A stretch of DNA of 64,000 nucleotides, taken from Octopus sinensis. Taxonomy: Eukaryota. Positions 4,424 through 63,648 of the stretch are shown piece by piece. The notes under the pieces were generated by a model. It did not search any database. It had not been told where the DNA came from and was given only the letters and a program-made list of their open reading frames with translations. A program made the translations under genes and the position numbers. Each line of letters opens with the position of its first letter. The first letter of the stretch is position 1. The DNA lies in NCBI RefSeq assembly GCF_006345805.1, contig NC_042997.1, forward strand, positions 59,892,001 through 59,956,000. The letters are read 5' to 3'.

Positions 4424-4850
4424 TATTTAAGAAAGAAAAATATGTAAAAACGCACGGGAGATTTGTATGATAAAATTTATGCTAATATTAAGAACATAAT
4501 GAAACAAAGAGTTGTATTACAACATTATATAATAAACTGGGAGTACCGGTTTCGCCTCTTACTTTTATCAAACCTCCTAGGGCTCAGATTTCAGTGCTGA
4601 GAGAATTTGTGTTAAATCATAGGGACGCCATTTTTGTTGTTGACAATAATTTTTGCAGTCAAAGGGATGTAGCTCTTTAATTTTTCTGAAGGTAATTTGA
4701 TTGCAAAAATTATTGTCAACAACAAAACTGGCGTCCCCATGATTTAACAAAAATTCTCTCTGCACTGAAATCTGAGCCCTTATGATTTTAATATTAGCAA
4801 ACATTTTATTATACAAACCTCCTGTGCGTTTTTACATATTTTCTTAAATA
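4424..4850. mobile_element. Fold-back relic of a Penelope-like 3' end with a degenerate hammerhead
   Basis: Inner inverted repeat ~4579-4663 / ~4696-4780 and outer inverted repeat ~4424-4500 / ~4780-4850. Minus strand 4577-4540 reads GGAG-GT-TTGATAA-...GC-GAAA-CCGG-TA-CTCC. Confidence 0.7.
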
Positions 4851-4959
4851 TATATATATATATATATATATATATATATATATATATATATATATATATA
4901 TATATATATATATATATATATATATATATGTGTGTGTGTGTGTGTGTGTGTGTGTGTGT

Positions 4960-5333
4960 GGAGGCGCAATGGCCTAGTGGTTAGGGCAGCGGACTCGCGG
5001 TCATAGGATCGCGGTTTCGATTCCCAGACCGGGCGTTGTGAATGTTTATTGAGCGAAAAGCTCCACGAGGCTCCGGCAGGGGATGGTGGTGATCGCTGCT
5101 GTACTCTTTCACCACAACTTTCTCTCACTCTTACTTCCTGTTTCTGTTGTACCTGTATTTCAAAGGGCCGGCCTTGTCACTCTCTGTGTCACGCTGAATA
5201 TCCCCGAGAACTACGTTAAGGGTACACGTGTCTGTGGAGTGCTCAGCCACTTACACGTTAATTTCACGGGCAGGCTGTTCCGTTGATTCGGATCAACCGG
5301 AACCCTCGTCGTCGTAACCGACGGAGTGCTTCC
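4960..5333 (+). mobile_element. Young tRNA-derived SINE inserted in (TG)n
   Basis: A box TGGCCTAGTGG, B-box-like GGTTTCGATTCCC, GC/CpG-rich body, (TG)n on both sides. Confidence 0.85.
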
Positions 5334-7166
5334 ATATGTGTGTGTGTGTGTGTGTGTGTGTGTGTGTGTGTGTGTATGTAATACTTTAAACAGTCATAAA
5401 TGTACACAACGTTCATTCCTGTGATTATTACAGAAGAAAGAAATGACTTAGACTACGAGTTACATTTCAACAATCTGAGATCACGAAGCAGTTTCCACCT
5501 ACAATCTTTAAAGTAAATTCACTGAAATTGTTTTGTTACTACTTTTTAAAGAAAATCATGACACCCACAGATCTGATTTCTCTTTCCTTAAAATATAAAG
5601 CATTTTGCCTCATCCTCTAGAAAAGAAGATGGTAAATCAGTGTCACTTTCTGAGTGCCAGATAGAATGCTTTGCAATATTTGCTTCGGTTCTCTGCGCTC
5701 TGAACTAAAATCGTGCCGAGGTCAGTTTTACTTTTATCCTTATGAAATAATATACAAGTACTGTAATCGATTTCCCCCTTTCCTTGTCTCTTTCTCAATC
5801 TTGGAACTGAATACATTGCATTGTGGGAAGGTTCGTAAGGGACTGCATACCATGTTCTTTTTTTAGAAACGCAAAAGAGGTAGAGTGAAGGACTAGAAAA
5901 ATCTTATACAAAAACCGATATTACATTGAAACATCCAAGGACTGACTAATGTATAATACAGGCATGGAATGGTATTAAAAAGTAAATAAAATATTCTGAA
6001 TTTGAGGCTGGTTAGTTTATTCAAAACATCAAATACTTTTATCATCCTCGTATCTCTTCCAAGAGTTTTACGACTTACCTGAATATTGAAGGTAAGTGCG
6101 TTTAGAATAGATGTTTGCTTATCCCATTATCATTCATGCTTTTCTTTTATATTTCTATATTTTAGGATAGCTGTGTGCTCAAAAGGGTAGAGTGCTGGAT
6201 TAAATACATTTCTCATTATTTAGTTATGTCCCTTCGTAAAATTTAGTTACGTTGTGGTTTAAATACCCATTAATAAGAGTCAGGAATTCTTGATTGAGCA
6301 GAGTTATTATCATACATGCCAGCTGTAAGTATACTGTCTTTCATTTAGACATAATAGATCTAGAGCCACATTGTTCAGTGTGTTTTTTCCTAAGACAACA
6401 GATGTGATTTGAAGGAGATTTGAGATGTGATTACTGTTCTTAGCAGGTTAGGTGATTGCATAGAGATTGCCAATGTAGCTCGAGAAATTTGTGACGTTGT
6501 ACTAATATGGAAACTTGAAAATTACTTGGTTAGTAGGTACTCTTTTTAGGAATTACATGGTTCTTGAAAGGGTTGACAGACTAATGGTAAATTTAATGTA
6601 TCTTAAATATCGTAATTTGCACAAGTGAACAGATAGCATTCTATTAGAAGAAACATTTTATTTCTCGTACGAAATACTGCTGACATGTTTTAATATATTT
6701 GGATAATGAAGCCGTTCACTAAGTATATATCTAAGTGCGATACTGATTGAATATGAACGCTTTATTTTTCGTTTGTAATCTAATTTTTTTTTGCCTTTTT
6801 TGACAAATATAAGCATTTGAGTGAATCTAGGACAGTTACGTAACTGAATCAAAGATGAGACAAAAGAAGAAATATTATTTCTTATATTATTCCAAATGTT
6901 ATTTAAAATTTTTTTCTACTATACTGAAACAAATTTTACAGACAATATTTCACAGACAGATGGTATCTTTTATTATTATTTGGTCGAGCATTGTACGATT
7001 CCAGTTAAAAATGGGTGTGTTTTAAGTTTTTCAAAAATCTTTACATTGCAAAACACCCACTGTGAAATTTGAGCTCCACCTCCAGTAAAATTGTATCTTT
7101 TAAACACGACACAATAACAACAAACTCAACAAGACTGCATTCAGTATGAAAACAGCGTGAAGTCAT

Positions 7167-60600: not shown

Positions 60601-61631
60601 ATGCATTGCAGACGTTATTTTGTTTTCTTGAAGAATATCATATGAACTGGTTTACAATAAATATAAAGTGAATATCCATCTGATATCACTCTAGTTTAGT
60701 CCTGTCGAGCCGACCTATTAGTCTTGGCGGCGCAGTAGGATGCACGTCTGTCTCTCAATCTATTTGATGTTTTCTTAGGGACAACTAGTTCTCTTAGTAA
60801 AATTCAGTAAAAATAATAAATGGCGGCGAAATAAACGAGAATAAATTAGATAATAAGTAATATATTTTTCTCTTATCGTAATTGGCCTTTACTATGAAAG
60901 CGGTTAGCTATTCTGTTATTGTTAGTCAGCTTAATCAAAGATTAGTATACAATTCGCACGGAATATATTACCTTAAGAAAATAACGGTAATATATAAAGG
61001 AATTGCTTTTACTGTGATAAAAACGAATTTCTTCTCAGAAATTTAATAGATGAATAATTATATTGTTAATGAGTGGGAGAGGATGGTCTTTGAAGAGTGA
61101 AAAGATGGAGTAGAGAAGGGGTAAGAAAGAAGCTATATCAAGGGAAATAAGTTAGTGATTAAGATCAGGAGATCGAGTTGAAGTAAAGAAAACAGTAAAT
61201 AGCACACCCATCCATACACACACATTCCCACACAGATGTTGGATTTTATGCATGTATGGTATGAGAAAGAGGGGTTATGAAGTATAACAAACAGAAAGGA
61301 TTTCTTTTAGATGCTGGCATAACATGTATGATAATACAAAATGAACAATTTTAAATGGCAAAGTGTGTTGAGATTTACTTGAGCAAAGAAAAACATTGAT
61401 ATTTGAAAATAGTATAAATTTTAAAAGAAATGGCTTCCTCTTGGAGCTATTTTTAGTTCACTAGTCATAATAAAGTCTGTAAAATATAATTTTATACGAA
61501 ATCTTGTGTATCTGTACGAAAAAACAATTTTAAAGGAAGATAAATGTTTAAAGATATTAAAATATTAAAATCAAGTTAATTTAGAATGAATTATGATAAC
61601 ATATTTGCTGCTGTTATTATTTGGCCTTAGG

Positions 61632-61840
61632 AGGACCGCAAGCTGGCAGATGCATTAGCACGCTGGACAGAATGCTTAGCGGAACCTCGCCTCTCTTTAC
61701 GCACTGAGTTCAAATCCCGCCGTGGACGACTTTGTCTTTCAACTTTTCGGGGTCGATAAGCTACGTATTGGAGTCGATCTAACTGACTTTAGCCCTCCAC
61801 ACGTCAAACTTCAGGCCTTGTACCAATAGTGGAAAAAATC
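61632..61840 (+). mobile_element. Meta-domain SINE copy
   Basis: AGCTGGCAGATGCATTAGCAC...CTGAGTTCAAATCCCGCC...TTTCGGGGTCGATAA. Confidence 0.8.
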
Positions 61841-62689
61841 ATTTTCCTCAAGTCAAACCTGATTGAAGCTTTTCAGTTGTACTGACTCCGGCTTATATTT
61901 AAAAAAAAATGTATTTATCTTAAACATTATTCAATGTGTCCTTCTTAAAAAAAACAGAAAGTGTAAAAAGAAGGTATAGTATAATTTAACTGAGATTAAA
62001 TGAAAGGACTATGTGGTGTCTACATCGTGAGCTCATTATTTTATCCACTTCGGCACAAATTTTCTTTTGGTTAGTTGGATTTGTGTAGTTGATTCTACAT
62101 CACTATCAATTATTTTATCATACCATAATGCTAATTATTTAACTTCCCTAGAGAAGAAATGAAAGGTAAAGTCAATAACAGTGCAACATGATACGGCAGA
62201 CAATGCTGTTCACTCAGTAATTTATAATACAGGAGTGAAATTACAAACGGTAGAACGTAGTCATTTAGGGAAAGAGGAACACTTATATGCTCTCAACCCA
62301 GTCAATTTATTTGTATATAACTGATTCTTGCGTAGATATGAAGACCGAGATTAGTAAGGGGTAGAGAGATTATGCCTTTTAGCAGATTGATTATATAAAG
62401 AAGTTCTTTAAGACCAAACCAGGAAGATTAATGATTACGACAGTGCCAGGCATGACATTCGTCCCGTTATATGTCTCTGTGTGTGTACATGTATGTATTT
62501 ATGTATATATGTAAGCATGTATACACACACAAACACATATATATGCACATCCATCCATACATATATACATATATATATGTATATGTATGTATATATATAT
62601 ATATATATATATATATATATATATATATAATATATATATATATATATATATAAGAAAGTTGGTTTGTGAAAGCACGTGGGTGAATATAT

Positions 62690-63648
62690 AGAAAATAGTA
62701 AAGAATGAAAAAACTACAGAAGGCTTAAATGTTAAAAAATATATATATTTGCGTCAATATGTCTGAAGAATATTAGAAAATTAAAAAAAAAATTTTTTTT
62801 CTCTTATAATGACATAATTTAAAAGAAAGACCGGTTTCGCGTGTAGCTTTTCAAATTTCTTGCGACGTTATGTTCATGTTGAATAGAGTTTTCGTTATGC
62901 TTATGTTCAGGAGAGTTCTAAATAAGGGAAGGTAGTGAGTGATTTCTTCCGGTGTAAGGGAGATAATCGCTTAAAAATCTTTTACTTTCCCTTGGTGTGA
63001 ATTTCTCTGTATCAGTATGTTCGGATGGTTGAGTCTGGGCTTGTACTTTTCAATGAAGAATGTTTCCTTGTTTAGTCTGATTTGTGTTGATGATCCGAAA
63101 GCACATTGGTAAAATGGAAAGATTAAAAATTGTGGTAGTAGTTGCTTTGCGCATTTCTCAATGTGCTCACTAAAAGGTATCATTCTATATTCTGGGAATG
63201 CAATCTGTTGTCGATGCAGTGTGCATCTACGTCTGGGAATGCAATCTGTTGTCGATGCAGTGCGCATCCACGGGACTATCACTCAGACGTAGATGCACAC
63301 TGCATCGACAACAGATTGCATTCCCAGAATATAGAATGATACCTTTTAGTGAGCACATTGAGAAATGCGCAAAGCAACTTCTACTACAATTTTTAATCTT
63401 TCCATCACTCACTACCTTCCCTTATTTAGAACTCTCCTGAACATAAACATAACGAAAACGCTATTCAACATAAACATAACGTCGCAAGAAATTTGAAAAG
63501 CTACACGCGAAACCGGTCTTTCTTTTAAATTATGTCATTATAAGATAAAAAAAAAAAATTTCTAATATTCTTCAGACATATTGACGCAAATATATATATT
63601 TTTTAACATTTAAGCCTTCTGTAGTTTTTTCATTCTTTACTATTTTAT
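62690..63648. mobile_element. Fold-back Penelope-like (Neptune-type) element with U3:A8 hammerheads in both arms
   Basis: Nearly identical inverted arms around an apex at ~63273-63283. Minus ORF ...FSEHIEKCAKQLLPQFLIFPFYQC...RLNKETFFIEKYKPRLN is homologous to 54255-54407. The right arm lacks the segment ~62945-63115. 41-bp tandem duplication at 63191-63272. Confidence 0.9.
63486..63524 (+). ncRNA. Type I minimal hammerhead, U3:A8 core variant (mirror copy at ~62823-62861, minus strand)
   Basis: AAGAAA-T-TTGAAAA-GC-TACAC-GC-GAAA-CCGG-TC-TTTCTT: 6-bp stem I, ACCGGT palindromic stem III, GUC cleavage triplet. Confidence 0.7.

Follow-up and report, generated by a model that had tools for sequence, protein, structure and literature searches.

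Positions 3 and 8 of the hammerhead ribozyme pair in its active conformation (PMC9901934), and a locus of Octopus sinensis raises the question of whether this pair can be exchanged in nature while the fold is kept for cleavage. The stretch analysed, hereafter the window, is 64,000 nucleotides long. It lies in a microsatellite-rich genome of 2.72 Gb and contains open reading frame (ORF) remnants of long interspersed nuclear element (LINE), DNA-transposon and Penelope-like element (PLE) types. A first-pass annotation had listed ten heptamers in it as hammerhead cores, some with U:A or G:C in place of C:G at 3:8, and had read the paired substitutions as a sign of selection for cleavage. We find that the pair was swapped repeatedly and yet stayed complementary. 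Probably, a fold able to cleave, which would trim tandem precursors, is maintained by selection on the source elements.

Variant hammerheads of the window and their families

All ten heptamers were found where they had been placed, each within a hammerhead-like motif. The five reported as CUGANGA (27320, 33916, 34511, 52789 on the minus strand and 53522) are canonical C3:G8 motifs, and the five non-canonical ones are members of four variant families (A, B, C and E). Judged by their sequence, the window motifs are minimal type-I hammerhead motifs located at the 3' ends of PLEs:

4539..4577, minus: U3:A8 hammerhead of family C (from the family rows), core UUGAUAA at 4571-4565, ACCGGU stem III, unpaired U before position 3
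27320..27350, plus: old canonical C3:G8 motif, ACAUGU stem III, poor stem I; four weak, distant relatives, all CUGANGA
33913..34026, plus: canonical C3:G8 hammerhead, long stem II, ACGCGCGU stem III, about 530 nucleotides past the ORF 32863..33384
34507..34554, plus: canonical C3:G8 hammerhead of a large family, ACAGCUGU stem III, the window copy decayed in stem III
40826..40861, plus: G3:C8 hammerhead of family B, GAUA for GAAA (A14U), solo truncated PLE 3' end
52754..52789, minus: canonical C3:G8 hammerhead, ACGU stem III, inverted copy of the 53522 motif
53517..53562, plus: canonical C3:G8 hammerhead behind the endonuclease ORF 52834..53382
54549..54593, plus: decayed copy (U3.G8) of the U3:A8 family E (from the family rows)
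62823..62861, minus: U3:A8 hammerhead of family A, inverted copy (from the inverted repeat and the family rows)
63486..63524, plus: U3:A8 hammerhead of family A, core UUGAAAA at 63493, unpaired U before position 3

The family rows were the best BLAST matches to each window copy (74-98% identity), so that canonical copies, with two differences, would still have been included. Family A had 1,629 candidates, 40 of which were scored (95-100%); UUGAAAA (U:A) is the core of all 35 rows whose stem III is exact, some of the loci overlapping. U3:A8 is likewise found in 31 of the 33 rows of family C, and the 21 rows of family E comprise 18 U:A, 2 U:G and 1 A:A. The UUGAAGA at 54555 is a hammerhead motif, but given this majority its U3.G8 is the decay of a U3:A8 family. 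In family B, one row of 31 was dropped; of the 30 that span the core, 25 have G3:C8 and all 30 have U14 (GAUA for GAAA), a feature missed in the first-pass annotation. The U:A and G:C pairs are thus fixed by family, as had been suspected; a return of the family majorities to CUGANGA, which would have refuted the first-pass reading, is not seen. Contigs from runs labelled as three organisms (family B stretch) and contigs of four runs (family A) show no alternative base reaching 10% at position 3 or 8, position 7 varying in the former, although the likeness filter biases this result towards agreement. One copy of family B (locus L060:1500-1560) has an inversion junction inside its palindromic stem III region.

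The rest of the core (U4 G5 A6 A9, G12 A13 A14 A15.1, U16.1 H17) is kept in families A and C; B has U14, and E has GAAAA in place of GAAA. Stem II is closed by G10.1:C11.1 in the majorities of A, B, C and E, with only 1-2 pairs in A and B. The palindromic ACCGGU stem III attributed to the variants occurs in all four families, by homology and not imposed. The closing stem I attributed to them is flush with the core in B; in the other three families an unpaired base intervenes before position 3, namely a U separating stem I from U3 in A (63493 and 62854), a U in 30 of the 33 rows of C, together with an internal A.C mismatch in the stem I register, and a C in E. The GGAG/CTCC stem I proposed at 4571 depends on a copy-specific base, the family C majority using another register.

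These departures bear on detection. In 264 kb, made up of the window and 20 evenly spaced stretches of 10 kb, a strict descriptor gave 3 matches, each of them within the window, against 0.1 in shuffles; the 20 stretches, having no strict-descriptor match, are of no use as an unbiased table of the 3:8 pair. A descriptor requiring a flush stem I misses the U:A copies, and both UUGAAAA copies were recovered only with one extra base permitted before position 3 (shuffle mean 0.13). The motif at 40831 was recovered only with one mismatch permitted in GAAA, which gave 2 matches (shuffle mean 0.8), the other, at 19242, being due to chance. No hammerhead model was among the Rfam matches listed for the window (150 of 183).

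Four Watson-Crick states and their history

The genome was searched with the pattern N-UGA-N-N-A, 7-16 bases, GAAACCGGUH (the ACCGGU-stem class) and a reversed-pattern control. Because the pattern imposes the other core bases, their conservation is judged only in homology-defined families; in those checked, G5, A9, G12, A13, A15.1 and U16.1 are kept. The class has 12,999 matches (control 1,335), 10,966 of them with a Watson-Crick pair at 3:8: U:A in 9,233 (control 48), A:U in 1,479 (control 272), C:G in 135 (control 26) and G:C in 119 (control 37). The non-complementary matches number 2,033, of which 1,091 have C3 without G8, and the remaining 942 are close to the control remainder (876). G:C motifs with GAUA gave 79 matches genome-wide against 1 in the control; one further control comparison (2,345 vs 253 matches) was uninformative. 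As the textbook core makes up only 135 of the 12,999 matches, standard descriptors badly undercount these hammerheads, in line with the earlier suggestion that a CUGANGA search would miss families.

Three apparent families were set aside. A C3.U8 group, comprising 79 of 100 listed matches with C3 without G8, is the antisense strand of a LINE ORF and has no stems; a second GAUA group lies, from its flanks, within another retroelement ORF and has no stems either; and a U3.G8 group was read in the wrong register, being C3:G8 with A6U.

When 179 motif rows were clustered, the resulting families had stems I and II of unrelated sequence, and a single pair prevailed in each family. The two stems pair with different sequences in each family, and position 7 varies freely between families. 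A3:U8 is a fourth state, unseen in the first-pass annotation; it forms two independent groups behind PLE endonucleases outside the window (loci L201-L230 and L336-L355). All four Watson-Crick states (C:G, U:A, G:C, A:U) are each fixed at the family level.

The motifs lie at the element 3' end, behind ORFs with reverse transcriptase (RT) and GIY-YIG domains: a same-strand endonuclease is found about 90-760 nucleotides upstream of 94 of the 235 motif rows, family C copies other than that of the window among them, and one ORF of 748 amino acids matches Pfam RVT_1 and, weakly, GIY-YIG. The translations have a C-terminal GIY-YIG domain, a DKG motif and a CX2-5CxxC linker, the features given for Neptune/Nematis (PMC8557442), and by these motifs the ACCGGU-class elements are of a Neptune/Nematis-type lineage; the 120 homologues listed include no named reference protein. 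We also considered the variants as hidden ribozymes of Naiad elements and rejected this, the endonuclease being C-terminal here whereas in Naiad it is N-terminal to the RT.

Trees of the upstream endonuclease region were built from protein (46 copies, each row with 100 or more aligned residues, and only 4 copies retained of family A) and from DNA (56 copies, 3 retained of family A). G:C forms a single clade in both (support 100 and 99), U:A occurs in several clades of both, and A:U is found outside the G:C clade in both, forming a separate clade in the DNA tree (support 100), where a second A:U group is nested within the G:C clade (support 91). Each tree needs at least three double switches within the one Neptune/Nematis-type lineage. 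In the sub-lineage of the last switch, which shares the same stem II, 79 copies are A:U, 17 G:C, 3 G:U and 1 A:C (100 listed of 103); the Fisher test gives p 3e-15, yet this is a single event. PLEs of other organisms, used as an outgroup, bear canonical hammerheads at the same place, with C:G at 11 loci and U:A at 2 (29 of 86 loci examined). C:G is therefore likely ancestral, and C:G to U:A is likely a fourth switch. Some hammerhead-bearing PLE ORFs (loci L490-L495) come from bacterial metagenome-assembled genomes and are probably animal contamination.

A fifth switch lies outside the window, in a non-coding, retrozyme-like tandem repeat; its units measure about 360 bp and each contains one hammerhead, with a covarying stem I (loci L302:1904-2262, L172-L200, L356-L375 and L396-L409). 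Its rows comprise 18 C:G, 18 U:A and 1 C.A, C:G and U:A being sister subfamilies.

Cleavage, fold or passenger

According to the explanation preferred here, two copies would pair through the palindromic stem III into a dimer, low or protein-assisted cleavage would occur after position 17, and tandem precursor RNA would be processed in this way; in every switch, the source element would for a short time carry a mismatch of weak activity. PLE hammerheads with a palindromic stem III are weak and cleave as dimers (PMC4209133, PMC6765202). In the lizard element (Anolis Poseidon), where cleavage requires protein, it is abolished by C3G or G8C alone and recovers in part when both are present (PMC11167929). 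When dimers of the Octopus motifs were predicted, ACCGGU paired between the two molecules in 7 of 8 cases, a count made without a shuffle control, and two of these dimers formed stems I, II and III. Genome sequence can offer no better sign of selection than the recurrent compensatory exchange of a pair that only the active fold contains.

We infer selection for cleavage from this covariation, and a series of observations weighs against the step. In amplified families, deviations also occur at core positions 6 and 14 and where stem I joins the core. A6U (core CUGUNGA, ACGU stem III) marks the most numerous family detected, with 12,899 exact 29-base matches and none in the control; these keep C3:G8 and have all four bases at position 7, 435 matches carry a different base at position 8, and some copies stand behind a C-rich PLE RT-endonuclease ORF (e.g. 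loci L376, L381 and L385). A14U arose in the G:C lineage, whose amplification went on, and is amplified in three G:C subfamilies, and the predicted family B dimer extends a helix that sequesters positions 13, 14 and 17. Stem I is flush in most genome families as in B, with A, C and E departing from this; family A, the youngest, no longer has the flush stem I that its sister retains, and a saltern hammerhead is impaired by insertions next to position 3 (PMC3088659). Of the double mutants made in a type-III construct, the G:C swap alone regained activity (PMC9901934), so that A:U and U:A may be weak. The tandem repeat includes a small but amplified C3.A8 subfamily (7 C.A and 1 A.A in 8 picked rows; 9 of 100 listed copies), which looks like the intermediate of the C:G/U:A switch. 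Finally, the sister of the G:C clade differs between the protein and DNA trees.

Part of this evidence would suit a hammerhead fold selected as a structure, for PLE protein binding or RNA dimerisation, with cleavage weak or dispensable. Such a function could tolerate the A14U, A6U and junction insertions of amplified families, and the history of the G:C lineage, which passed through GAUA and then yielded GAAA and A:U subfamilies. It would also accord with in vitro insertion of the lizard PLE, for which cleavage is dispensable and RNA ends at the site were not observed (PMC11167929), and with Naiad PLEs, which proliferate without canonical hammerheads (PMC8557442). The 3:8 pair, however, belongs to the active conformation (PMC9901934), and its retention points to the catalytic fold, as does that of the six core bases kept in the homology-defined families. 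With the core and junction changes, the limits of type-III rescue and the dispensable cleavage in its favour, a function of the fold alone keeps some weight but appears unlikely.

The hammerhead might instead be a selfish or neutral passenger, in which double changes drifted to fixation in a few source elements and were then copied. Shared ancestry indeed reduces the thousands of matches to four or five events, a C.A mismatch subfamily exists, and it has been suggested that hammerheads might parasitise PLEs (PMC8557442). Yet on three occasions a change at position 3 was accompanied by the complementary change at position 8, for which a rough count under a crude model gives 2e-5 to 8e-5 for 15-25 branches, and the PLE lineage showed no mismatch family of large size; we consider drift improbable. 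Chance matches or mis-registered motifs in AT-rich repeat DNA did produce the three artefacts described above (two matches in LINE ORFs and one mis-register). As a general account they have next to no credibility, and for A, B, C and E they are refuted, by the excess of U:A over the control, the family-specific pairing of stems I and II, and the canonical hammerheads in the equivalent place of outgroup PLEs.

More tentatively, selection for cleavage could be extended to a stepwise evolution of the ribozyme active site recorded in one genome, the pair of a PLE lineage moving from C:G to U:A, then to A:U and G:C, and from there back to A:U. These would be the first natural G3:C8 and A3:U8 retroelement families, and the A14U and A6U families, with up to tens of thousands of copies, would be active, perhaps only with PLE protein. 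This is a possibility that we hold to be somewhat doubtful. If it were true, cleavage would be selected in PLE transposition, and searches with CUGANGA and GAAA would miss a large share of genomic hammerheads. The swaps bear on the need for PLE hammerhead cleavage, which is weak in vitro and dispensable in one reconstituted system, the motif being absent from some PLE clades. The Octopus families offer a natural mutant series for assay: C:G, U:A, G:C, A:U, C.A, A14U and A6U.

Surroundings of the motifs and relation to known systems

Besides the hammerheads, the window retains endonuclease remnants of several PLEs:

32863..33384, plus: PLE endonuclease ORF remnant with a CxCX5C linker, Hydra-clade-like by motif
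52834..53382, plus: PLE C-terminal endonuclease ORF remnant
54090..54395, plus: endonuclease remnant of the Neptune/Nematis-type lineage (tblastn 44% identity, E 3e-28)
63258-63028, minus, and 63225-63404, plus: two inverted family A endonuclease remnants (tblastn 91% and 80% identity)

The first two have no Pfam match. The second, flanked on either side by the motifs at 52789 (minus strand) and 53522, appears Poseidon-like from its sequence features. The linker of the first is that of the Hydra clade as described in PMC8557442. The hammerhead downstream of it (33916) has a 10-bp stem II, an AT-rich loop of about 70 nucleotides and its GAAA at 34012; with such a loop II, hammerheads of this type would escape standard descriptors with short spacers. 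The family A remnants belong to two PLE 3' ends lying inverted between (TA)n tracts (62793-63554), and inside this pair is an internal inverted repeat of 122 nucleotides (63114-63405). Elsewhere in the window are a young LINE RT remnant (46068-47201, minus; Pfam RVT_1), a piggyBac-like transposase remnant (41979-42434, minus; DDE_Tnp_1_7) and two inverted repeats, both likely transposon-derived, of 134 nucleotides with zero spacer (26311-26578) and of 229 nucleotides with a 51-nucleotide spacer (57048-57556).

PLE hammerheads and natural U3:A8 are already known; G:C and A:U families are unreported in the literature searched. Small PLE hammerhead variants with a reduced palindromic stem III and dimer cleavage have reportedly been described by Lunse, Weinberg and Breaker (RNA Biol 14:1499). 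Natural G3:C8 or A3:U8 hammerhead families were not found in the literature searched, which did not include the alignment of Lunse et al.; for G3:C8, A3:U8, A6U, A14U and C3U/G8A, the accessible portions of the sources gave only engineered G3-C8 (PMC3884650, PMC11167929, PMC9901934). The novelty implied for U3:A8 in the first-pass annotation does not hold, as this pair was published for Schistosoma PLEs (PMC4209133) and for other hammerheads (PMC3088659).

The 360-bp tandem repeat fits the layout of animal non-LTR (lacking long terminal repeats) retrozymes (PMC7229834, bioRxiv 10.64898/2026.07.22.740005), from which it differs by its sister C:G and U:A and small C.A subfamilies. The Anolis Poseidon hammerhead (PMC11167929) belongs to another PLE clade, and G3:C8 was engineered there, whereas it is natural and fixed in Octopus. 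The hammerheads surveyed by Perreault et al. 2011 (PMC3088659) resemble the present ones in U3-A8 covariation, insertions by position 3 and a low-activity A6 substitution; the accessible part of that paper does not mention G:C or A:U at 3:8, and its variants are rare single examples, in contrast to the multi-copy retroelement families of Octopus. The closest system is that of the metazoan PLE hammerheads (Cervera and De la Pena 2014, PMC4209133), which are alike in being type I, with short stems and a palindromic stem III, and in occurring at PLE ends and in inverted pairs. The U3-A8 variant reported there has about 1,300 matches in Schistosoma mansoni, and the alignment rows examined comprise C:G, U:A and one U.G, with no G:C or A:U. 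Beyond what the accessible text of that study describes, the Octopus hammerheads include a class dominated by U:A, four pairs at 3:8, switches mapped on trees, and the A14U and A6U families.

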